DNA of 64,000 bases from Yuukianura sp. NJ FZ-2021 (lineage: Eukaryota). This document shows positions 203-45,081 of this stretch, piece by piece. The position numbers were made by a program, and so were the translations under genes. Location of the stretch: NCBI GenBank assembly GCA_046563655.1, contig CM102290.1, forward strand, positions 5,828,001 through 5,892,000, written 5' to 3'. The notes beneath the pieces were generated by a model. That model was not told the origin of the DNA, searched no databases, and worked only from the letters and a program-made list of their open reading frames with translations. Each line of letters starts with the position of its first letter. The first letter of the stretch is position 1.

Positions 203-3200
203 CAGTACAAATCATTTGTGCATCGATATGAAGTAGAACTCACCTCGTTTTCAATTTGGATGGAGTTGTCATCGTCACTCTCAGCCTCGTCATCTTGTTC
301 CTCCACTTTGAGTTCAGGAATGTCATAAATGGATCCACTCGAGAACTGAAGGACTTTCGGAACATGGTCATTCGCATCACTCACTCTCACGATCACTTTG
401 GTCATCGATGTCAAGTTCCCATCCGAAATGACAACGTCCAGGGTATGTTCGGGAAGGGCCTCCCTGTCCAAGGGTCCCCTCGTGGACATGATCCCTGTGA
501 CCCCATCAATGTCAAAGTAGGCAGAGGACGTCCTGAGTGAGAATCTGAGTTGCTCAGGAGAGTTATCACAATCGAAGGCATGGACAGTGAGGACAGGGAC
601 GGGCCCTTCAAGATTTTCCTCCACTGTGGCCAGGTACATGGGGGCCCTTGACAAAGGCACACAGTCGTTTTCATTCTCCAGTTCCACCACCAGGAAGCAG
701 TAGGCGACAGTGGACATGTCAAGGGCACTTTGCGCCTGGACAGTTAAATAGTGCCAGTGGGGCTGAGATTCGTAGTCCATGTCGTACATAGTTCGGACAG
801 TTCCGGCCGAGTCGATGCTGAAGAGGTACTGAGAGGGCCCTTGAAGGGACAAGTAGATGCCTGGGTAGGAGGACTGCTGCGGCTGAAGGGCCCCCACCGT
901 GGTTACGACAGATCCTACAGGGGCCCCTTCTCTTATGGACGCCACGACGACCAGCTCAGGGAAAGCAAGCGGCGGAAGAGGTTCCGGCACATCGTAAATC
1001 TGAAAAAAAAAATCAGTTTTTCTTGAAAATGCAAATTCACTTTTCAAAAAAGTTGTTCGGCACGCTTTCCAATTTCAGTTTTTGAAAAAGTTGTAAAAGT
1101 TGAAGTCCAAAGTCAACAAAAGCCCCCCGCCCGCCCGCACACAAACATTTGAGAAGGTAAACACCCGCCTCCGTTTGTATTGGAAGCTGCCACGAATAAT
1201 TGGATCCGGCACAAACTCCTCTCCGAAGAAAAAACTTTTACTTCCTTCCAGTTCAACTAATGACACAAACTTTTACATCCGCTCAATTCAAAACCACATT
1301 TTCAAAAAAAAAAGTGAAAAGAAACTCGTGTTTTCAAAATAAACTTCTAGAATGGCCCAACTTTTTTCTTCGTTTGTATTCCATTCACTCATTCTATTAA
1401 ATGTGTAGCCAAGAGTTCCGTTTTCTTAACTTTCCAACATGAAATATCCATTTCATTTTTTAAGTTGTGACTGACAAATTTTTTTTAAATTTTTTTTAGA
1501 TGATAAGCCTTCCGTTCAAGTTCAAAAAGTTCACTTCCCACCAAAAAAAATTTTTTTTTTCAAATGGCTTGATACGTCGTAAAAAATAAAAAGAAAAAAA
1601 TTTGACGAGAAAAAAGTTTCTCTTCCGAATTCAAAAAGTTGTGGGTCCGTTTAGAAATTTCCGATTTTTTTTTTGCTCATTGTACGTTTATAAGTTTCAC
1701 AATAAAATTTAAATGGTTTTAAAAAATATTTAAAAAAAAATTAAAAAAAAATTTTTTTTTGAAAAACAGAGTATGGAAAGTGTTTGTTTTGCACAAATGG
1801 GCCACTTGTTACAACTTTCTTTGCTCCGCGTGGTGAAAGTGTTTGTATAGAACGAGAGAAAGTTGGGTGAAAGCTGTGCACTTTCTCTCCTGATTTCATT
1901 AACTTTGAATTTAGTCCACAAAGTGATTAAGATTTCCTCTGACAACCAACAGCCAACACCCAAATTAAAATCTAGAAAATCCAAGGTTCCTAGAGCAATG
2001 AAATAGGTTTTGTTTAACAGGTTAGGGAAACAGATTGAGCGTTGACTTACCTCTATGACGATGAATGTCTCTGAAGCGAGGGACGGAGTGCCAAGGTCCT
2101 TGGCCTGAATTGTCAAATTGTACATGGACGTTCTCTGGTAGTCCAACTTCCGGTTCACTCTCAACACTCCCGAAATGTCGTCCACCACAAAGTCTCCTCG
2201 TCCACCGTCCACTAAAGCGTACCGGACGATCCCGCCGTCACCCAAGTCCGGATCTTCAGCCACGACACGGGTGACGACACTGTACAGAGGCCAATCCTCA
2301 CGCACTTTCACTACACGACTCTTCTGAACTGACCCGCCCAAGGTCACGGCGCCACTTCCGAAGTTCAAAAACTTGGGACTCTCGTCGTTCCGATCTTGGA
2401 CAACGACAGTGAGGACGGCAGTGGAGGATCGTCTCGGAGTCCCACCATCTTGAGCCACGACTAAAATGTCGTATCGATCCACTTTCTCGCGATCCAACTC
2501 TCCGATCAGTCTCACTTTCCCGCTCTTTCCATCGATACTAAAATTATGAAGAGATTCATTGAGGAGGCGATAGGAAACGACTGAATTCGGACTGCCCTCT
2601 TCATCCTCATCGAAGGCCTTCATCTCTGCAATTGTTTCTCCCGATAACTCATTCCCTTCACGAATCTGAATTTTCATCGCAGGTTTCAAAAATACTGGCC
2701 AATTGTCATTCTCATCCAACACCTACAAAATATTAGAAATTTTTTAAATTTTACCAATTTCCAAAGTGATAACAATTTTGAGTCATTTGAATTTTCAAAA
2801 TCATAATAATTTTCAAAATTCCAGAAATCCTGAAATTCCAGAACCTCCTTTTCCCAGAAAATGTGCAGGAGCGAAGAGTTTACCTCTCTATCACTTCCTA
2901 TTCCCAAAATATGAATTTTTAAAGTTTTTGAAAATTAAAATGAGTTTTGACAATTTAATATTTTGGAAACGGAAAGAGTTACAGACCTAATCTCAACAGG
3001 ACAAACTTTCAACAAATATAGAGAACCTTTAGAAAGTTTGAAAACTCGAATATCGAACATCAAATTTTTTGTCAAATTTTGAAAAAACAAAAAACAATGG
3101 ACTATAGTCCATGAATTATTTTTTTCGACATTTGGTCTAAATCTGAGGGTACTGAAAATCAGCACAGCGGAGTGGTTTAGTCTCCCACCTCAAAAAAGGT

Positions 3201-6200
3201 GGGAGGGGTGCGAAAACTACAGTTGTCGAATTTTTTTTTAGGAAACTGATACTTTTGTTATGTTTTGTTGTTATTTGGGCCGATTTGAAGTGGTTTTAAG
3301 TAGAATTTGGTTAGTTACCTTAATTGGGAGGAGTTTGGACATGGTTCTGGGTGGCTTGCCTTGATCAAAGAGTGAGATATTGAGAGTGTAGGATGGGAAC
3401 TCTTCACGGTCGAGTGGTCGAGCGACGACGAGCCACGCTTCCTGGACAGTGGCTCCTGTCCAGCTACTCGTCTCCACGCTCACAATGTCCCACGCCCCAT
3501 GACTCTCGTCTCCACCACAAATCACAAACTTCACCCACGCATTGTAACCTTTGTCCTTGTCAACTGCTTTCAACTTCACCACTCTCGTCCCCACTGCCAC
3601 ACTCTCGTTAACCTAAACACAAAACAAACAAATTAGAATCTGGGCCAATCACAAGCCTTTTTACAATCTCTGGACCAATCAGCAGCCTTTTTACAATCTC
3701 TGGACCAATCAGCAGCCTTTTTACAATCTCTACACCAATGAGGAGCCGATTCCTGGACTTTTGGCCAATCAGGAGTCGATTCACAGTGGAAAAACATTCT
3801 TGAAGTTTTGAGACAAAAGTTTACATGCAGTTTTCTGTCTCAAAACGTAGACTTTTTCCCACTGTGCGATTCCGTGACTTTTCACCAATAAGGAGTCGAT
3901 TCCTTGACTTTTGACCAACCAGAATTCGATTCTTTGACTTTTGACCAATCAGAATTCGATTCTTTGACTTTTGACCAATCTGAAGTTGATTCCTTGACTT
4001 TTCACCAATGAGGAGTCGCACAGTGAGAAAAAAGTCTTCTTTTTGAGACAGAAAATTCCCTTTAACTGTATGTAAACTCTTGTCTTAAAATTGCGACTTT
4101 TTTTTTGTATTGACAGTCACTTCCTTGACTTTTGACCAATCAGAAGTCGATTCCTTGACTTTTGACCAATCAGAAGTCGATTCCTTGACTTTTGACCAAT
4201 CAGGAGTGGAATCGACGCTTTGGGCAGGAATCGCTGACTCTTGTAAAAAGAAAGTCCAATTGTTGGAAGAGATTGATGATGATTTGAGTGGGGGTTTATT
4301 GAATGGTAGGGATTGACACGCCTCACTGACCTGCTCAGAGACTATTGAAGTAGAAAGGAATTTGTAAAATGATCGTCTTACCCGGATTTCTGAGGGAAAG
4401 TCCACAAAGTGAGGCTGAGTATTTTGAGCGTAGTGACTCGGCTCAGGCGGGAATCGGTTTTCCTCCAACTCCGTCTCATCAACTTTATTGTTCTCTTCGG
4501 ACAGAGCAGCCATGCGATCATAACGTCCTTGCACTCCCGTGTCCAGACACTCAAACACAGAATGCGAAGTGGAGTACACTTTGACCCCCGTCCGAGAAGA
4601 AGAGTCCGATTTATTGAAATTCGTCCTCAGAGAGTCACGAAGTTCAATTTTGATGGACATCACATCAGAAAAGTACTCTCCATCTCCCGCCGTGATGTTG
4701 AGCACTCGCTTCGCACTCCGGAAGTCCCTTAAGTCACACATTACTCTAAGGGCCCCCAAATTGTCCACGGAGAAGCACCCGTCAGAGTTGCCGTGCACAA
4801 TTTTGTAAGTGACTGGATCGTGATCGAAATCCAGAGCCACGACCCGCCCAAACTCAGTCTCGAAACTAATTCGTCTGTCAATTACACTCACACAGGAAGA
4901 GAAGATGAAGAGAGGGCGATTGTCATTGATCGGCACAACTGAAATTTGAAGTTTCATTTCCGACTCACGACGAAACGGTAATCCCCAGTCGGTAGCACGA
5001 ACTCTGGCGACGAAACTTCGACGACTCGATTCATAATCTAACACTTCCGTTGAGCGCACTTCGCCCGTAAAATGGTCAATTGTGAACGGCAAGTTGTTGA
5101 GATTGGCCATACTGTACGTCACGTACCTGAAACAAAAACGACATCAAAACGTAAACGACATAAAAACGTAAACGACGTAAAAACGTAAACGATATAAAAC
5201 GTAAGAAACGTAAAAACGTCAAAATTACGTTTTTTTTTGGAAATTACCCGTTTTCTCCTTGGTCATAATCTCTTGCATGGATTCTCGTAACGAGAGTTCC
5301 CACGGGTTCGTTCTCGGCAAAATAAACTTCCGTCTGATTCCCGGTTGACCCGCCGAGGTCAAACACTGGCCAAAACTTGTTTTCGTCAATCAACTTAATC
5401 ACGATCTTGACTGCCGAGCGGTGCCGACGAATGGTGTCGTATCGGGCGGGTCGAAGGTCAAGTGAGTCCACAGTTAGAGTGAAAATGGACTTGCGCTCAA
5501 AGTCAAGCCATTTAGCAGTGGAGAGGACGCCGGAGGGCGCCAATCGAAACTCCTCCCCCTCGTTTCCAGAGGAAATAGACAAAGTGACCTTGGGCGGGGG
5601 GCGGGGGAAGCGAAGGACCAAGGTTTGGGGGGGACTTGACTCGGAAATGTCCACTTCGTACAAGTCCTTGTCAAAGAGTGGCTGAGACACGAACGACGAA
5701 GGGCCCTCTGTCACCTTCAGCTCAAGTTCCTGCAAATAAATCATAATTTTGTACTTTTGGCGCCAAAAAAAAGTGTGAGAGTGCCATAAAAATTGTCTTC
5801 CACAAGCACAGATGCTGGAATCCCAAATTTCCAAAGTCATAAAGTTCAAGATTTTGGAGGGAGTAACTACGGGGTTTTCTGGCGGGTAGGGTTTGAAAGC
5901 CGGGTGAAAGTTGGTTTGTGGTGGGACTTGTTTTTATGTGATCTGGTGGGGCATGTGGTGGGAACAGTCATTTGACGAAAATTTCCCCGTTTTCATTACA
6001 CACAATGTCTTACCACCAACTGTGCCTCTGTTTCCTGGATTTCAATCTCACTTTGCCCCTAGAAAAGTGAAACATTGACCTTTGACCTCACCTTTTCAGA
6101 AGCCTTGGATGGCTGCCCTCCGTCTTCCGCTCGGAGAGTCAAGTTGAAGGTGGTTGATCTGGACGGTGGAGTGCGGAACGTGAATGTGTTGGCGACCACT

Positions 6201-9200
6201 GGCGACAAGACGACATAGAACTCATTTCGACTGGATGCTGGGAGCACTCGGAACATGCCGTTGGGGTCCCCTTCCTTGATTGTGAGGGTCACAAGGCCAC
6301 TGGGCCCTTCGTCATTATCACGACAAGACACGACGGCGTAAATCACTCCGTAAGGCCTCGTCTCCACCTCAAAAATCGCAAAAGTAAAATCGGAAGTTGT
6401 AAAAAGTGCATCAGTTACGAAAAGTTATCCATACTTAAGGAAATGCACAAACGTAAATTGTAAAAACGTAATTTGTAAAAACGCAAATTGTAAAAACCTA
6501 AATTGTGAAAACGTAAATTGTAGAAATGTAAAAATATAAATTGTGAAAGTGTTGTAATAATTTGAACCATGAAATGCTAAATTCCAAAAACATCTATTGT
6601 AAAAATATAAATTATAAAAAGTGTGACTTGTAAAACTCTTAACTGTAAAGAGGTATATTGCAAGATGCGTAAATTGTAAAAATGTAAAATGTAAATTGTA
6701 AAAAATGGTGTGTTGTGTATTTGAAGTGAGTGAGATTGATGGTGGATGGTTTGAGTTTTGTATTGGCTCACTTGTGGTGGACGATTAATTAGGATTTGTG
6801 GCGTGTGTCTGTTTGCAGGGCGAATGGAGACGATGGCTGTGGAGTCTGCTGCTGGTCCGAAGCTCCACCGATTCCTCGCCTGGATCTTGATGTGCTGTCG
6901 CTTCCCCACCAGCCCCACCAGAGATCTCGTGGGACTCACCACTCCCACAATCGGATCCACCGCAAAATGGGCATTCCACTCCGCTAAACTGGAACAGAGA
7001 GACACGATCGCCTCATTAGGATCTACCCGCTCTTATTAAGGGCCCTCCAACAGGGCTCCACAGTCCCCCGGGCAAACCTCCTTACAAACTTGGTCCCCGG
7101 TGGGCAAAACTGCAATCAGCTGACCACCAGAATCTCATTTCCTGAAACCCAGTGCCCAATGGGTAACATGGCTTGAGAAACAAAGAACGAGAGTGTAGAA
7201 AAATAATGGACCTAGTGGGATTCGAACCCACATCTCTTCTATCCGGGAAGCACTCTAACCCCTGAGTTATCAGGCTCTATTCTACATAATCTCAAAGGAT
7301 GGAGGAACTACAAGGCAGTTTAACCTGAAAAGTTCGTTCTGACTAAAATGGATCTGACCTCGGGTACCCGGGTGGGGAGTGGGGTTTTTGGTGGGCACTG
7401 TCTAACCCTGTTTTGCCCAACTTTAGAAACTCGTGTAATTTTCAATATGCATGAAGGATCAATGCGGGATGTTTTCATAAACTAGTGAAACGGAATATTT
7501 ACTTTTGAAATACTGCTGTTCCCACTTTCACCACAGTCAGCAACATCCTCCACAAACAAAGTTCTTGGCGCTAGGATTTGAAAGTTTTAATCTGGTGGGA
7601 GAGGAAGTGGGTCTTAAGCCACGAAACACGGTGGTGGTGGTGGGTTGGAGCCACCCCGTGGGTGGGACGAGGATATTAATTTAAAGTAATCGCCCCACCA
7701 CTCCTCGATTATCTTTTAATGTCTCTGGAAACGGCAGAGTCTCAACTTGCCCCAAACCCTCGTCCGCTCCCAGCATCCTCAAATTCTCTTTTTCCAACAT
7801 TACAAAAACTGTTCAAGTCGTGATCCGAATTTTGTTTCGAATTTAACACGGAGAGTTTAGCAGCAGAGCCTTTGGGCCAAGTTCGTGGCTGTTTTTGGCG
7901 CGTTTTTTGAAAGAAAAAAAAACGATTTTCGGTCGTAACGGCTTTGTGAATGGACATTTTGAAAATTAATTCTAGAACACACCAGGATTTTGAGTAGGGC
8001 TTAATTGAAAGATCTCAAACACAAATTTAAAAAAAAAATTTGGTGCCAAAACCGTTAGGGCTTTAACGTTAAAAATTCCGAACGGCAACTTTTGGCCTCC
8101 AAGCGAAACGTGCTGAAGCCTAAACTTTTTTTTTATGAAGAACAAAATCCGTTGATACACGCGCCAACATAAATTTGAAAACGAAAATACAAAAGTGGAA
8201 ATTTTTTCCGCCAAAATTTTGAAATTTGAAATGAGAATGAATTGTACCTGTAGTAGATTTCTTGATTCCTGCCAATATCTGCATCCACTGCAACTATTTT
8301 TGCAATTTTGGACAGAATTGGAACATCTTCGAGGACACTCATATCGTAAGTTCTCTGTTCAAACAAAGGACCATTGTCAGGTTGATCCAGAATTTGAATA
8401 TAGACAGTACACTCTGCAGTGGCCACTGGAACCCATTTTGTGTCCTCCACTAGGGGCGCACTGGTGGGTGGGTCCTTGGCCCCACCAGGCGGGGCCACAG
8501 TGGAAGTCGTTTGGAGCGTAATTGGAATTGGCACAATTGCTGACTCTGAACTCTGTTTTTTGTTTTTGCGTTTCGTCGATCCGTCACTCTTTGACTTGTT
8601 TCTGGGTTTGGTTCGACGCTCATCTCTTAGGTTTCGTCGAAGGAGAGATTTGGAAGATTTGGATTTTGAAAAACTTTTTGATTTTGAAATTTGAAATGTT
8701 TCATTTTTTCCAAAATTGGACAAAGGTGACCAGGAGTGGAGATCAAGCGGAAATTGGTCTGTGGTCTCTTCTGGAGGGAGGTCCAAGTACCTCTGCAGTC
8801 TTCTGGGCGAAGGGGTCCCCTCTGATTTCAAATCTCGAGCCACTTTGTTGACCCCCGTGGACAAAGGGCCCCCTGGGGGTCTCTCATCGTGGAGGGGGTT
8901 GACGGAGGGGGTCCCTTGCAGAAGCGTGGCCTTCACTCTAATTTTGTAGACGTCTTTGAACTCTCTGTTCAAACTGCGTTCGTTGTTGTTGACGCGCAGA
9001 ATGAGGAAGCAGAAGATGCCGACCTGCTTGGTTTCCACTCGAAAGAGCCTGAGAGGATCGCCGTCGATGATCTGCAGATCCACTTTGGCCGATGCATCGG
9101 TCCACAATCCCATCTTCTCCGTGGGGAGGACCAAGGTGGAGCCGAGGGAGTTCTCGGCCACCGATCCATTGTACACTGAGCGTGTAAACACAAACTGACC

Positions 9201-34576: not shown

Positions 34577-37500
34577 TTATTTTGCTGACAGTGACTCTCG
34601 TCCACAGCGGGCAATGGAACTGAGGAGTTTGAACAGTCCCGTGTCCTTCGGTTTCTCCAGTCCTCTCATTAATCGATTCTTCATCACAGCCACAAACTCA
34701 CGATTACTCAGCTGTCCATCCTCTGCAAACATTCATTAACTAAAGTTAACGCTTCAATCCAAAGTATAATCGCTTACGGTTTTCATCAAATAAGGTAAAG
34801 ACGACATCGATCATATGGTCCGACAGGTCAACATGTGCTACTGTCCTGGCAACGTGCTTCAGTGTTCCTGCATTTTGACATTCACAATTAAGATTCACAT
34901 GAACTGGACACAACCAAGGTTTCTAAGACAAGGAAAAGTTAATTTTCTTTAACAGGTTGGGTACTACCTCGCTTGTTTACAAAATAAAAAAAAAATTCAT
35001 ACCAATCCAAAAATTGGTACCAATTCGTATGCAAAGTTTAAAAAAATTGGCTGCATTGTTTATGACTACGATGCCCGACATGAAAAGATACTTTTTTGTA
35101 AATCAAAAAAACATGAAGTATTACCCAACCTGTTAAAGAAAATCAAGGCAATAAACCTTGGGAAAGAACTGTGAGAAACTTACGCTGATCAATCGCTGCT
35201 CCAGCGATGTGGTAGAAGGTGAGGGCAGTATCTACGTCGTTAATGTTACTCAGCAAGTGGAAAAACTGCAAGTAGTCGTCCAGGGAGATTCCTTTAGCTA
35301 AGGCAGGATCTTTGTATCTAAAACAATCAGGTTCAATTTGGATCAGTGCTAAAGAGGATTCACTAATCCTCGGAATCCGACGATTCCGAGGATTAGTCAG
35401 TCCCGTTTTAAACTTTGACCTTGAGCTTACTTTCGTTTGACTCTTTTGAGCATTCGGGCCTTTTTCTTGGGCGTGTACCCCGCATAGGCCAGCAGTAGTT
35501 CTGCAAAGTCACTTTCGCTGATTCTCTTGTTTTCTGCCGGCCCTTTCCTCCGGAATTCCAAATTCAGAATTTCCCGCTGAAGATGTTGCTGGAAGTCCAG
35601 GAATTTCTCTATCGTCAACTTCTCTCGCCGATTGGATCCAAAGAAGAATGTGGTCAGAGCAGAGTTCATTCCCTGAATTCAATCAATTACTAATTAGTGA
35701 ATCAAATTTATGTAAATGAGGACTCACTTTGAGTGAATTCCCTGCCACGGCATGTTCTCTATGTCGTGATCCAAAGGTGGTTCTCTGGCGAATAAGGGCT
35801 GTCACTTTTTCAAATTCTTCGTGATCCACGTCTCCATCTCCATTTAAATCGAACATGCGGAATGCAATCTCAAAGTGACGTCGTGAAGCTAAAAACAAAA
35901 AAGAAGTGTTTAAAGTTCCCTCTGAGTTGGTTGATTAAAAATTTGTTCCGTTACTTGATAAAACTGTGAGGAGAAAAATGTAATCTGAGAAGGAGATGAG
36001 TCCAGCACTTCCCAGTTTGTAGAAGATGCTGTCCGAATCAAGCTCCAGTTCCAGCCGTCCAGCTACCTAAAACAAATGTACAAAATATACAAATAGACAA
36101 ATTGAAACACAAAGTGTTGGATACTGTCTACAAGGGTATCGCATTCTCCCGGAGTGGTTCACACATGCGACATGTCAGTATATAAGTTCGTCTGTCGAAG
36201 TATTTAGTAAATCGCACGATTCTAGAAAACAACTGAGCAGCTAAACTCTTTGACTAAAAGGTCTACAAGTATTGGGGTCCAAATTGTCTTCGTTGTTCAA
36301 ACGATGATATGTCATGTGATCATGCCAATCCAGAATTCACAAGTTTGAAGAGTAGGATTTACATGCATTTGAGTTGGAATACTTCCAAGTACTTGAGATA
36401 CTTCCAAGTACTTTGTAGATATTTAGCTAGCCAGTTGTCTTCGGAAGTGGGAGTGCATTAGAAAATCTATAGTCGTCAACTTGGACTAAGAGTGAGTAGC
36501 ATATTGGTAGTTATGGTTCATAAGGACTGAATACTTTGACTGAATACTTGAGTTAGCTCGAAAGCGTGCTAGAGATAAGTTTGAAAACGGAGTGAGTGTT
36601 AGAAGGTAGAGGTCAAAGGTTATGCCTTAGTGTGTGATAAAGAGCAAAGACAAAGAGTGCAGAGACAGTTTGAGAATAGAAATTACCTCCAGAGAACTCT
36701 GTGTGATAGGCAAAGGAGGTGGTCGATGGTTAAATGGGTTTGAGAGAATAATCACAGATTACCATCATTAACAAAGGCATGTTACATTACTCTCGTCAAG
36801 AGGAGATTACAGCACAACTTGACTCTTCCCTAGCTAATTGGCTTTACACTGGACGAATTACAACTTACTTTGGGATCAAATCGCTTGAACTGGTCCAATC
36901 CCACACCTAAAACAACAGAAAAACAACAATTAGTAATCAACTAACTAAACTAATTAACTAATTCTTAACTAATTAAGAATATATTAGTGTTGTACCGTCA
37001 GGCTGCTTGATTCCTGGAGTGATTGATCTCAAAAAGTCATCAGGAGTCATGAAGATCTCTGCTTCTCCAGAAGGATTCACAACCTGGAGAGTGGCAAAGT
37101 ACCGAAACGTTTTGTCTGGAGTTGAATACTGTCTAATACGATTCTCATATTCCATGATCTGCAACAATTAACCAAATGCTAGTCTAATTAAGGTGACCTT
37201 GATTAATTGCTTAATTGATTTAGCTCAACTTACTTTGCGATCTCTAAATCCCACTTTCTGGCCCTTCTTTTTGCGTTGATGCTCTTCGTCAATCTGTCCC
37301 GTTATTGTGGTGCTGTCAACGTCAGGCGAAGCTGCATCTACTTTGGGCGGAGAAGGGAGGAATCTCTGTGCTTTGCCCTTGACCCACTCAGTAATCCTGC
37401 AATTGAAACCAACCGATTGATGATCTTTATCTGTGTAAATTAAGTTGTGTCTTACATGTCCCAATCCAGCAAAGAGGCAATGAAGCCCCCGATCACAATG

Positions 37501-37790
37501 AAATGCATGATCCTCCTCAACGTAGGCATCGTCTCTGTCCGATGTCCGAAGTTACTGTATGGACCACCATAATGAGTCGTGGGTAGGTCACTTTTCTGCA
37601 ATGAACTGGAGTGTCTTGTGACAAGTTGGTGTAGACGGTGACCTTTGACCTCGAGGCGATGGGAACATCCGGTGGTATCCAACGGATGATAAATTAGGTA
37701 AGTTCTGTAATTAGTTATGCAGTGAACTGATGTAGCACTGGGTCTTAAGTATGGACGGAGAAGATACCGCAAATCGTTTGTTAAACGCAT
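34577..37790 (-). CDS. MICU1: Mitochondrial calcium uptake protein 1 (EF-hand MCU gatekeeper)
   Basis: Exons 37790-37456 (may contain a 63-nt in-frame intron at 37767-37705), 37396-37234, 37158-36996, 36906-36869, [36698-36687 candidate microexon], 36066-35955, 35888-35728, 35672-35431, 35317-35184, 34867-34778, 34722-34577. Diagnostic motifs [31 protein letters not shown]-hands [14 protein letters not shown] and [15 protein letters not shown]-terminal [10 protein letters not shown]. Confidence 0.95.
34915..35160 (+). mobile_element. MITE, CAAGGTT family copy in a MICU1 intron
   Basis: caaggtttct...ttttctttaacaggttgggta...tacccaacctgttaaagaaaa...aaaccttg with a perfect 21-bp subterminal inverted repeat. 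Confidence 0.88.
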
Positions 37791-38234
37791 CTCGATAATC
37801 GCCGAATTCCGACTGCTTTTTAGCTGACCATGAGAAGTAATCGAAGTAATCGAATTCAAAGTAATTAATTAGTAACTCCGTAGTTAATTGGTAAAGTCAA
37901 CAGAAATGACAAAAACACATGATCATATGTTCTTTAAATTGTGCATTCATGCAGCAGCTACTCGCACTCACGCACGTCACCCACTTACCACAGCTGGACA
38001 ATACCAGAGTTCTCAGGAATTCAATTTTAAGTAAATTTTTTGAAAATTTTCAAAAAACATTTTTAAATTCCAAAAATTTCAGAAAACAAAATTTTTGAAT
38101 AAGATGAGGTTGGAGTTGTGACAAACTAAATTCAGAAAATCGAATTGTAAATACCAAATTTTGAAAATGTGAAGAAAGAATGATTCTTGATTCAATCTAG
38201 CTAAATGCCTAAGGAATACCTAAAATTTTTACAA

Positions 38235-38361
38235 TGGTAGGGAATTCTGAATCTTCAAAAGCAGTAAGAAATTCTGAATTTTCAAAAGTGGCCGTGAATT
38301 CTGAATTTTCACAAGTGGTAGGAAGTTCTGAAGTTTCGAAAGTGGTAGGAAACTCTGAATT
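38235..38361. repeat. 27-bp tandem repeat x~5
   Basis: Consensus gtggtaggaaattctgaattttcaaaa; explains the repetitive ORF 38234-38476. Confidence 0.8.
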
Positions 38362-39580: not shown

Positions 39581-39662
39581 TTTCAGCCACTTTCAGCCGT
39601 TTCTGCCACTTTTAGTCGTTTCTGGTACTTTTAGCCGTTTCTGCCACTTTTAGCCGTTTCTC
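39581..39662. repeat. ~21-bp tandem repeat x~4
   Basis: ccacttttagccgtttctg units. Confidence 0.75.
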
Positions 39663-40996: not shown

Positions 40997-43610
40997 TGGG
41001 AGTGAGCAGCCTTAATTGGTGTGTCCAAGGTGTTCCCAGGGGGATGAATTGGCCTTTGTTGTGAGCCACCACTTTTGAGAGTGGTTGGAGTGAAACTTGA
41101 GTAATTTATTGATAAAGTGGCTGGAGGGAGTGGTGGTTGACCCTGGGGCGAGTGGAGACGGGATCGAATCCACCTCGGTGGAGTCTGGCAGAAAAGTGGT
41201 ATCGATTTGGTGGGGCAGGAGGGGAGAAAGTTGTTGGAGGAGAGGGATGATGGGTCTGGTGAAAGCCTTCTTCTGTCTCAAAAACTTCCAACTTGGGGTC
41301 ATGCCCCGCCGATTACCAAAATCCACCGTTTTTTTAACATGACGCAAAAAATGGAAAAAGAAAGTGTCCGCTCCTGTCTCACTTTTAGTGACACTCAAAG
41401 TTATTCTCTGAGGAACCAACTTCTACAGTTTAAAAAAGACAAAAATTGTTGTTCGCTTTTTTCAAAAACTCAAAAAAAAAATGAAATTTGTGAACAGTTT
41501 TGTATTGGAGAAAGTGGTGAAAGTGGACTCTTCTAAACCTTGTTGTGGAAGGGTAGTTTTCCTCTCTTTTTTTGAATCCTCCCTCCTCTTTTTTGTGGTT
41601 GAGGAGAAGATGGTGGGGCAAGTTGAGACTTTGAACTTAAAAAGTGCCCCCAACGGGTACTTTTTTCCAAAGTGTACCCTTTGGGGGTACTTTTGTGCTG
41701 AAACTGACGGAAGGATATTTCGGTTGGATAAACAGTGAAAAGGGCTCCTTGAGCAGCAAAACCTCTTTTTGTCCCCCCACAAATCCAAGGGAGGGGAGAT
41801 GAAAAAACACAATGAGAGGGAGAAAAAGAGGGATCGGAGGATACAAAAACAGAGTGGGATTTTCCGCATCTCCGTGCACCCTTCGTACACTTTTCCACAC
41901 TCCCGTGTACACGTACACGTACACGTACACGTAGAGTGGAGAGGGTAGAGCTGGAATCAGGGCGGGTTAGGCCGAACGACCACCGATTTACCCCCTCTTC
42001 CTCTTTTTTATTTTTTTCCAAATTCCTCAGTTTTTAGTTCAGTCGTTGGGAGGGAAGGGGACTCAAAGGATCTCTCCACTTTCACTTACAATTGTATTTA
42101 CTTTACGTTTCCTAACTAACACAGTCATTTCTTACTCAAAGTGTCACAGTTTCAACTTACTCCCGGTGAATATCCCTGTTTTCAGTTGACCTTTGACCTG
42201 TCTCCAGTTGACCTTTGTGGCCAAAGGTCACGAGTGCCCGAGTTGTGATTTTGATCTTGTGATTTTTCCAATCTTCAAAAGAATTGTGGGGGCTGACTAA
42301 TAGTCGGAGTATTGTGCATGGAGTGAGTTTACGAAAAAACAGAATTTTGGAATCTCTCCCTCTCCAGTAGAATCCGCTCAACTTCTCGGTGAGTCACACT
42401 TTCTTCACTTTCATGCAAGTTAAGGTCAAGGTCAAAAGGTCACGCAAAGTCTGACTTTTGTGGAAGTCAAATTTGTCATCGTCAACTAACTTATTATGCA
42501 ACTCCAGAATTTCAAACATCAGTTTTTTGTTTTAAAATATCAAAGATTAGTTTTACGTTTTAAACTTTCAAAGATCAGTTTTTCGTTTTTTTTTGACATA
42601 AAATATGCTGTTGAACAAAGAATGAGAATTTGTCAGTGTTGGAAGTCGCTGAGTATGCGAGGTCAGTAATCGAAGTGACACAGTTTGCGAGGTCAGTGTT
42701 CGAAGTGAAGCATTTTGCGAGGTCATTGTTCGAGGTCATGGATTTTGTTACGTTAGTTTAGCATTGTTGAGTTTTGGAGGTCAGAGGGAGAGGTCATTTG
42801 CTTCGCATCTTCTTAGGGTTATAAAACCAAGGTTCACAACTTTTTTTAAAAAGGACGGAAAAGGGATTTTGTTCAAGATTTCTTGTGCCTTTTCGTAATT
42901 ATTGTTGAGATTGTGAGTGTTCGTTGGATTGAAGGGCCCTTCAAGGGTACCCTTGCATTCACTTTGGCATAAAACCCTACCAACACATTTCATTCCTCAA
43001 ACATCCTTTTTCTCAGGAAAAGAAGCCCTTTTTCCCCAGAAAATAAAAGATGAAGGGCTCTTTTTTCATTTGGCGAAAAGGGGCCCTTGGTCCTTGGAAA
43101 TTAAAAACCAGTGGCTTTACCTGAAGTTGCAGAGAGGCCTTGATCTTGTCCTCCCTTAAAGGGAGGCCCTTCAAGAAAAAGCAGAAGCTGGGGTGAAGGC
43201 CCCCTGCTCAGCCTCCCTCCGTTGACTCATCACGAGGCAAAAGAAGGAGAGAAAGAGGAGAAAGTCTCTCGGGACTTAAATTCCCCCACACATCTATCAA
43301 TTTTTACCAAAAAAGAAGTATTTTTATAAGAAGTTTTTGTACTAAAAATCATGATTTTTGGAAAATCAAAATTTGGGAATCTACTGGAAGTGAAATCAAA
43401 AAATTGAAAACGTCACGATTTCTTGTTTTTGACGCTTTTTTTGTGTTTAGACTTCCGAGAAGTTTTTGTTGGTGCTACTGAAGAGCGGGTTGAAGTGCGC
43501 AATCGCACGAGGGAGAGACTTCAAGTGTCGTGACGTCTGACCTCGTTCTGACGTCATATTGACATCGTTGTGACGTCATCGTGACGTCTTTGTGACCTTT
43601 TTGTGACGTC

Positions 43611-45081
43611 ATGGCTTCTGAAAAGTTGATGCGTGAGCAGGAACGGCGTGAAATGAGGCACCTCGTGACCTCGAGCGTCCCTTCGCCGCCCTTCAGTGGC
43701 CTCTCAATCCTCAATCCAGCCACTCTGTCCGTCTTCAGTTCTGATCCACGCGCAGTTCTGTCTGCGCATCTCTTCGCCAGCTACGCAGCAGCCAATCCGG
43801 AGGCAGGAAGGTTCCAGTTGCCCCTGCCCATCTCACTCGTCTCTCAAGGTCAGCCGATCTACCCCAAACCACCAACTCCCCCTCAGTTGGACATCATCTC
43901 GTCATGGGTCAATGACCACAAGGGCAAGACCAGGAAGAAGAGAGGCCCTTGGGACAAGGACCAAGGACCCACCAACCTCAGCAAGGACAGAGGTCAGGGG
44001 GAGCAGGGGGGCCCTTCGAAAGAGGAATCCAACAACAACAACAATGACAATTTGAACAAGAACCATTCCAATCAGGCGGCAAGGGACAAGCAGTTCACGT
44101 GCGAAGTCTGCAACAGAGGATTCGGATACAAACGTAAGTTTTCAAAATTTTGAAAAAAAGTTAAAAAAAATTTAGAAATTTCAAAAAACTTAAGCACTAC
44201 AGTGAAACGACAGTTGTAAAGTATCGCTAGCATCAGTTCGAGTGGCACGAGTTTCCAAAATTTCAAGTGCGACAAAAAATGGAAGTGTTTTGATGAAACT
44301 GGCACAAAATCACTTGAAGTTTGAATCTTTTGAGACTGATCAAAATAATTTTTTGTTGTAATTTTTAGACGTTCTGCAGAATCACCAGCGGACTCACACT
44401 GGAGAGAAGCCCTTCAAGTGCTCCATCTGCCCCAAAAAGTTCACAAGGGACCACCACTTGAAGACTCACATGCGACTCCACACCGGAGAGAAGCCTTACC
44501 GCTGTTCGCACTGTGACCGCCAGTTCGTCCAGGTCGCCAACTTGCGGAGGCACTTAAGGGTCCACACCGGAGAGAAGCCCTACGCCTGCGACCTCTGCAA
44601 AAATCGCTTCTCAGACTCCAATCAACTCAAGGCTCACATGCTCATTCACAAGGGAGAAAAACCATACAGTTGTGTCAACTGCGAAGGGCGCTTCAGACGC
44701 AGACACCACCTTCACAACCACAAGTGTGCCCTTAAGGATCCCCTCATGGACACAGGGTCCCCTCCAACTGAAACCAAGGCACGAGTACGCAAGTCACGAG
44801 AGACACGCAGAATCATTAGGATTGATACGCCGGGGGCCCTTGAGGGTCCCTTGACCTACCTTCCGGAAGTTCCCGAACAAACGCATCCCGAGGACTTGTC
44901 TACCCACAGTTTGAACTTGAGCAGCAGCCACTCCAGTTCTTCTGCGTCTCCAAGTCCCCTTAGCGGAGAATCTCAAGGGTCCCTTGGTCTGTACTCCGTC
45001 GAGAGTTCGGAGGGGGCCCCTTATTCCACGGATGACGACGAAGAGGGGGGTACTGAAAAGTCGGAAGACTCAGATGACTAA
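43611..45081 (+). CDS. Kr: Kruppel gap-gene C2H2 zinc-finger repressor
   Basis: Exons 43611-44133 and 44369-45081. Fingers [83 protein letters not shown] are Kr-diagnostic; C-terminal [10 protein letters not shown] (CtBP-binding motif). Probable non-coding first exon ~42040-42388 spliced to the acceptor at 43450. Confidence 0.96.

Follow-up and report, generated by a model that had tools for sequence, protein, structure and literature searches.

The closest described counterparts of the segment analysed in this work are two vertebrate microexons of MICU1. In MICU1.1 the residues EFWQ, present in mouse and human, are inserted after residue 181 of mouse MICU1 (PMC8909990), and the resulting protein has a roughly tenfold higher affinity for calcium and escapes inhibition by MICU2 (PMC6801532, PMC7575740, PMC8909990). 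The same source adds a neural TE exon, assigns control to RBFOX2, and reports that TE at this site leaves MICU1-MICU2 behaviour unchanged (PMC8909990), so that an insert at the junction need not retune gating. Table S2 of PMC8797185 lists the mouse 12-nt exon (MmuEX0029002) and 6-nt exon (MmuEX0029001, grouped 'Neural') in one intron. In zebrafish, inclusion of each of the two micu1 microexons falls when the eMIC of srrm3 is mutated (dPSI -42 and -17; PMC13281805). In two reviews (PMC6801532, PMC7575740), the MICU1.1 exon is described as conserved among vertebrates, with its mechanism unknown.

Here we describe a putative 12-nt microexon at the corresponding position of MICU1 in the springtail Yuukianura sp. 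NJ FZ-2021, within a window (the whole stretch of DNA analysed) of 64,000 nt. Vertebrate RFDGK aligns with springtail RYDPK. Isoforms of fish and opossum carry DFWQ and TE/ME immediately behind R[FY]DGK, a point at which a rodent read-through model also reveals a phase-0 donor; the placement at the vertebrate MICU1.1 position, proposed in an earlier sequence-only reading of this DNA, is therefore upheld by a shared phase-0 junction. With MICU1.1 exon 5' the springtail microexon shares the gene, the phase-0 junction after R[FY]D[GP]K, the frame-preserving 12-nt length and the addition of four residues, and Rbfox-type motifs downstream in the springtail intron are a further likeness. The acidic-aromatic sequence D/E-F-W-Q, by contrast, was not found, its place being taken by polar x-x-x-E residues (SSLE, SSVE, TCRE, NYEE and NHSE). 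Only in vertebrates have inclusion in muscle, control by RBFOX2 and a raised calcium affinity been established, and part of the MICU1.1 effect is escape from MICU2, a protein that flies lack (PMC6506686) and that was not found in this springtail genome. With MICU1.2 exon 5'' (TE), a neural microexon, the shared features are the intron and the terminal Glu, whereas the lengths differ (6 nt versus 12 nt in the springtail) and little functional effect with MICU2 is reported for TE. Compared as sequences, the springtail microexon is MICU1.1-like in place and size and is not a member by sequence.

A third described system, the 9-nt eMIC-dependent microexon DmeEX0002678 of Drosophila CG4495/MICU1 (PMC8797185, table S2), is likewise an eMIC-type microexon of an arthropod MICU1, but occupies another intron. 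Fly exon lengths deduced from the listed coordinates (163, 38, 115 and 161 nt, the 38-nt exon being chr2L:7183778-7183815) match those of the window (163, 38, 112 and 161 nt), which places the fly microexon two introns downstream of the window's microexon intron and excludes it as an orthologue. The window intron equivalent to the fly's microexon intron measures 55 nt. This difference of intron fits PMC8797185, which gives only four same-position fly-mouse eMIC exons and does not include MICU1 among them.

Finally, automatic RefSeq isoforms already hold arthropod inserts (Folsomia CRE, decapod SAEE, odonate NHAE and Zootermopsis NHDK) that share the junction, a length of three to four residues and variability between isoforms. 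These are automatic annotations, and no paper was found in which they are described or related to MICU1.1. The literature examined contained no account of an invertebrate microexon at the MICU1 junction, although figures and supplements of the 2016 MICU1.1 and 2019 eMIC papers may bear on this point; MICU1 is not named in the ExOrthist supplements, and no splice variant is mentioned in the available part of PMC7434445.

The MICU1 gene and its 12-nt segment

The MICU1 model of the window (Table 1), microexon included, keeps an open frame with two EF-hand loops (two canonical EF hands). Over about 470 aa the protein is 73% identical to MICU1 of Allacma and 70% identical to those of Orchesella and Folsomia, and exon 3, found as a single copy in the genome, is 91%, 89% and 87% identical to its nearest named proteins, those of the springtails Allacma, Folsomia and Orchesella, respectively. 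Similarity is best to MICU1 rather than to MICU2 or MICU3, and the Allacma relative scores 455 bits against human MICU1, compared with 139 for MICU3 and 131 for MICU2. The sole paralog found in the genome is MICU3-like, scoring higher against MICU3 than against MICU2 (172.6 versus 153.6 bits, and 45 versus 36.4 in a second comparison); MICU2 itself was not found in the search of the genome.

Several features of the surrounding sequence were noted in passing. The exon at 37158-36996 (-) was found once in this genome, and the proteins examined from Allacma, Orchesella and Folsomia likewise show it a single time; its counterpart forms a duplicated, mutually exclusive pair in many insects and some decapods, as judged from read-through models, Schistocerca X1/X2 and two fly exons. 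A 117-aa open frame with one hydrophobic stretch and no significant Pfam match adjoins MICU1 downstream (34013-33663, -), and tandem repeats lie upstream of the gene (38224-38361, a 27-nt unit repeated 5.1 times, and 39581-39661, a 19-nt unit repeated 4.3 times). The window also contains a two-exon C2H2 zinc-finger gene identified through Pfam (43596-45078, +), which looks Kruppel-like.

The sequence-only reading had reported a 12-nt candidate in the longest MICU1 intron, and the candidate is found as described: the minus strand runs cctcctttgcctatcacacAG, then AGTTCTCTGGAG (36698-36687), then GTaatt, with AG/GT borders and phase 0 at both edges, so that SSLE would be placed between RFDPK and VAGRLEL. 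Among the coding introns of the model the host intron is the longest (the others span 55-316 nt), and its upstream donor is strong. A weak 10-nt repeat lies at 36380-36413 within this intron. The microexon itself begins with AG (36698-36697, -), so that splicing could also use an acceptor 2 nt further on (CAGAG), with a change of frame; this second acceptor also occurs in one related springtail-like locus (L002) and is absent from two others (L003 and L005).

Taken by itself the segment is unremarkable. The host intron contains 25 in-frame AG..GT candidates of 3-30 nt, which the requirement YAG..GT(A/G)A reduces to 36698-36687 only, and among 2000 dinucleotide shuffles subjected to this requirement 69% yield some candidate and 12% a 12-nt one; the observation in the window alone is therefore not beyond chance.

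Table 1. Features of the window's MICU1 gene and of the loci compared with it (positions are within the window unless another locus is named)
Feature	Position	Strand	Remarks
MICU1 gene	34577..37790	-	ten constitutive coding exons and the microexon; protein of 531 aa if it is included, 527 aa if skipped
Putative cassette microexon	36687..36698	-	12 nt, phase 0-0, encodes SSLE
Host intron	36067..36868	-	802 nt, phase 0, GTAAGT...TTTTAG; 170 nt precede and 620 nt follow the microexon
Upstream constitutive exon	36869..36906	-	38 nt, ends RFDPK; length equals fly exon chr2L:7183778-7183815
Downstream constitutive exon	35955..36066	-	112 nt, begins VAGRLEL
Conserved block (acceptor region, exon, donor, downstream CU-rich tract)	36656..36756	-	88/101 bases identical to L002
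Microexon 3' splice-site region	36699..36789	-	89-nt AG-free zone, TTAAC at -35, UGC at -14, CAG acceptor
Microexon 5' splice site	36681..36686	-	GAG/GTAATT; GAG/GTAA in four springtail loci and L016
Three GCATG (Rbfox-type) motifs downstream of microexon	36164..36367 (at 36366, 36325, 36168)	-	none upstream
L002, counterpart cassette	4437-4448		SSVE
L003, counterpart cassette	6514-6525		TCRE
L005, counterpart cassette	6497-6508		NYEE
L016, cassette	1451-1462		NHSE; GTAATT donor, 146-nt AG-free zone; insect locus, exon nearest Menopon
L014 (annelid-like), putative microexons	5312-5344, 5980-5994		33 and 15 nt (11 and 5 residues)
L015 (annelid-like), putative microexons	3514-3546, 4129-4143		33 and 15 nt (11 and 5 residues)
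Srrm234-like gene end	G000:C6:2193250-2193960 (L090, L091)		RS-rich exon and short downstream exon
MICU2/3-type paralog	G000:C8:1852192-1852650 (L085, L092)		one found in genome

Key to the case are related loci. Of 80 loci retrieved by scanning metagenome contigs, L002, L003, L005 and L006 have springtail proteins as their nearest relatives and span the intron, L006 being the same as L005 over the region. A 12-nt YAG..GAG/GTAA cassette lies 171-231 nt into all four distinct springtail-like introns, the window included (181-231 nt from the intron donor in L002, L003 and L005). When each intron was shuffled 2000 times, this strict pattern, defined only after the springtail-like loci had been viewed, came up 0-1 times. 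Under a looser filter (YAG, in frame, GT[AG][AG], an AG-free zone of at least 35 nt, pyrimidine-rich) a 12-nt match arises in 2-5% of 1000 shuffles per intron. Across the springtail loci the AG, the GT, the frame and the 12-nt length are constant while the inner bases vary. Between the window and L002 identity reaches 88/101 in the microexon block, compared with 148/360 in the deeper intron, 13/34 at fourfold-degenerate sites and about 75% in two coding exons. Retention of the microexon within flanks more conserved than the coding exons therefore points to selection, and on these alignments conservation in relatives lifts the microexon beyond chance. Variation between transcripts is suggested by Folsomia, in which RefSeq X1 and X2 differ solely by CRE at the junction, an insert of three residues rather than four that may be compared with TCRE of L003; the insert is absent from the proteins of Allacma, both Orchesella species and Folsomia X2.

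Splice signals provide a second line of evidence. Exons dependent on eMIC are characterized in PMC8797185 by a long AG exclusion zone, UGC near the 3' splice site, a strong CUAAY branch point and a long CU-rich tract. The first two of these are present at the microexon, whose AG-free zone covers 89 nt where the gene's nine remaining acceptors have 15-55 nt; the zone is long at all five loci (96-146 nt in the other four), and UGC occurs within 15 nt of the acceptor in four of them (the window, L002, L003 and L016; absent in L005). Branch-like motifs were found in two of the four springtail loci (TTAAC at -35 in the window, CTAAC in L003; none in L002 or L005), and pyrimidines make up 0.67-0.72 of the microexon flank versus 0.54-0.60 intron-wide. 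From their sequence these signals look more like those of neural eMIC-type exons than like those of specifically muscle exons. The genome also encodes an Srrm234-like gene end, whose last two exons cover positions 4-55 and 57-66 of Pfam SRRM_C at 22.7 and 9.5 bits, both below the cut-off of 27. We presume the C-terminal SRRM_C motif to be the eMIC core. Downstream GCATG favours Rbfox-driven inclusion. Three such motifs were observed in the window intron against 0.25 expected (reached by 0.1% of 2000 shuffles), one each in L002, L003 and L005, where they are individually non-significant (23-36%), and none within the part of the L016 intron covered.

Inserts at the junction in arthropods and other animals

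Comparable inserts recur in other pancrustaceans. Isoform pairs differ by SAEE in the decapods Homarus, Penaeus japonicus, Scylla and Portunus, by NHAE in the odonates Hetaerina and Ischnura, by NHDK in the termite Zootermopsis and by four residues in Artemia, while a partial protein of the cockroach Diploptera ends in NHDE and a beetle-like protein carries HGFQ. These RefSeq X isoforms are computed models compared as proteins and some inserts may represent splice-site shifts: in Periplaneta and Schistocerca the first inserted residue is Val, as expected of donor read-through, and the Daphnia insert LLSFNDFQ resembles an acceptor extension. At the genomic level, the looser filter applied to 20 further loci returned two matches, a 42-nt match in L059, which we take as chance, and the insect cassette NHSE of L016, which matches odonate NHAE, termite NHDK and cockroach NHDE. 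The search for conservation in other arthropods that the sequence-only reading had proposed thus yielded SSVE, TCRE and NYEE in springtails and NHSE in an insect, so that the refuting outcome it had named for relatives, a lack of conservation, did not arise.

The AG/GT donor consensus allows only K, Q or E, so that the terminal Glu is partly forced and the signal in the sequences is thin; what springtail, insect and decapod inserts have in common is therefore their length, their place and a first codon beginning with A. A single origin of one old pancrustacean exon of the form [NST]-x-x-E/K appears likely. No insert was seen at the junction in the Bombus and Neodiprion isoform sets, the intron measures 76 nt in the ant-like locus L023, and the coordinates listed in table S2 of PMC8797185 give 56 nt for that of the fly; judged from these sequences, the exon was probably lost in several holometabolous lineages, namely bees, sawflies, ants and Drosophila.

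Beyond Pancrustacea, the same intron is present in divergent animal loci, and inserts at the MICU1 junction were observed in 22 of 24 species isoform sets spanning vertebrates, molluscs, a nemertean, chelicerates and pancrustaceans, the 24 sets being clusters chosen for their multiple members and not a random sample. Besides opossum and Lineus, the positive sets come from five molluscs, three chelicerates and twelve pancrustaceans. In two of the 22 every insert begins with Val and may reflect a shifted donor, and several further inserts may reflect a shifted acceptor. Insert sequences are unrelated and their lengths lineage-specific, with 7 aa in molluscs (K-D-x-x-x-x-L type), 5 and 6 aa in Lineus and 15-18 aa in chelicerates, and Pecten, Gigantopelta, Lineus and Homarus combine several. 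Aplysia carries the insert ETFE. In the aligned part of the introns of the annelid-like loci L014 and L015 only two blocks are clearly conserved, both of them in-frame AG..GT cassettes, with TGCATG following the second, 15-nt cassette. The strict filter missed both, for which reason its blanks in other annelid-like introns carry little weight and its use as a test of absence was rejected. An initial assignment of L014, L015 and L057 as non-bilaterian was also dropped, L014 being nearest to annelid-type proteins. Three further annelid-like loci with the intron after RYDPR (L028, L050 and L058) contain a conserved block of about 120-200 nt that has no obvious in-frame cassette. One Amphiura and two Saccoglossus proteins have no insert at the junction, and no named cnidarian, sponge or placozoan was among the best 120 matches of a protein search.

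Possible function and origin of the microexon

We consider it probable that the segment is, taken as a whole, a regulated pancrustacean microexon in a hotspot intron. That the springtail microexon is real appears highly probable from its sequence conservation, and if it is real we would strongly expect it to be alternative rather than constitutive. Flanked by strong sites and itself weakly defined as an exon, it would be skipped in most tissues; neurons, and perhaps muscle, may include it with the aid of the Srrm234 eMIC domain, to which the long AG-free zone and the UGC by the acceptor point, and Rbfox may assist through the downstream GCATG motifs. Inclusion would add four polar residues with a terminal Glu to the N-lobe, in a flexible loop that follows R[FY]DPK and is remote from the EF hands, and by analogy with vertebrates the insert may fine-tune the gatekeeper, through its calcium threshold or its partner binding, in excitable cells.

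By analogy with MICU1.1, we lean slightly towards a measurable effect of the microexon on calcium gating. The strongest alternative, somewhat improbable in our judgement, concerns function only and overlaps the preferred reading in its splicing: the exon would be real and regulated and have no calcium-gating effect, either with a loop that tolerates inserts or with an influence on a channel-independent role of MICU1. Insert variation even within springtails (SSLE, SSVE, TCRE, NYEE) is consistent with such tolerance, as is the human TE insert that leaves MICU1-MICU2 behaviour as it is (PMC8909990). The loop with the insert site is unresolved in crystal structures (PMC8909990) and of low confidence in the predicted structure of Folsomia X1, which has the MICU1 fold (block pLDDT 56-61 at the loop) and gives no mechanism, and a channel-independent role would accord with flies, in which MICU1 lethality is uniporter-independent (PMC6506686). 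Against this stand the retention of an in-frame 12-nt exon whose flanks are more conserved than coding exons, and the roughly tenfold rise in calcium affinity that four residues at this site bring about in vertebrates (PMC8909990, PMC6801532).

With respect to origin, the sequence-only reading had offered 'an ancient or convergent' microexon. The exon is probably old within Pancrustacea and probably convergent with vertebrates. An intron that serves as a hotspot for different short exons in each lineage leads us to read the match to MICU1.1 as parallel use and not as one inherited exon. Were the springtail exon instead orthologous to EFWQ (5') or TE (5''), a single ancestral bilaterian microexon would have drifted in sequence while length and place mattered, a scenario we regard as unlikely. 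It draws on the shared intron and phase and, for EFWQ, the 12-nt length; on the 22 of 24 isoform sets, from four phyla, with junction inserts, besides the two conserved annelid-like cassettes; on the terminal Glu common to TE/ME, Aplysia ETFE and the pancrustacean exons; and on the dating of neural microexons to bilaterian ancestors (PMC8797185). However, no residue is shared with D/E-F-W-Q, and intermediate lineages possess inserts of other lengths (11 and 5 aa in the annelid-like loci, for example), often several per intron, which shows that such exons were gained repeatedly. The lack of an insert in the one Amphiura protein and the two from Saccoglossus also weighs against common descent, as does the preference in PMC8797185 for convergence in three of its four same-position fly-mouse exons.

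It is very improbable that the conserved block is an intronic regulatory element or a constitutive exon rather than an alternative cassette. While intronic splicing enhancers can be conserved, the AG, GT, frame and 12-nt length are kept here as the inner bases change, and a search of 35900-37000 against Rfam returned nothing at E<=1; the block also folds no better than its shuffles (z = 0.37), and on these two grounds a structured RNA or snoRNA was ruled out as the cause of conservation. A constitutive exon would have to be reconciled with the proteins of Allacma, both Orchesella species and Folsomia X2, which are without insert, and with the presence of both forms in Folsomia. A chance AG..GT arrangement, for which the 12-nt candidates in 12% of host-intron shuffles may be cited, is barely credible and already largely refuted by the recurrence of such a cassette in three more introns of springtail-like loci and in one of an insect, each with a 2-5% rate in shuffles, and by the peak of conservation around the microexon.

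Together these observations suggest that use of the junction extends far beyond vertebrates, to a different microexon in Pancrustacea and to further ones in molluscs, a nemertean, chelicerates and annelid-like loci. A hexapod that has a long intron at this point would add a candidate to the set of same-position fly-mouse eMIC exons, and suggests that Drosophila understates the sharing of positions, while the natural variants make the question of length or sequence directly testable. A bolder reading, which we hold tentatively and think doubtful, is that of a bilaterian-wide device in place since the bilaterian ancestor, in which tissue-specific microexons would lengthen the MICU1 loop and reset the mitochondrial calcium threshold in nerve and muscle, with length or charge counting for more than sequence; such a device would have been missed because Drosophila lost the site. 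If this were true, SSLE, SAEE, NHAE, the mollusc 7-mers, DFWQ and TE would constitute a panel for studying how four distant residues alter calcium affinity.
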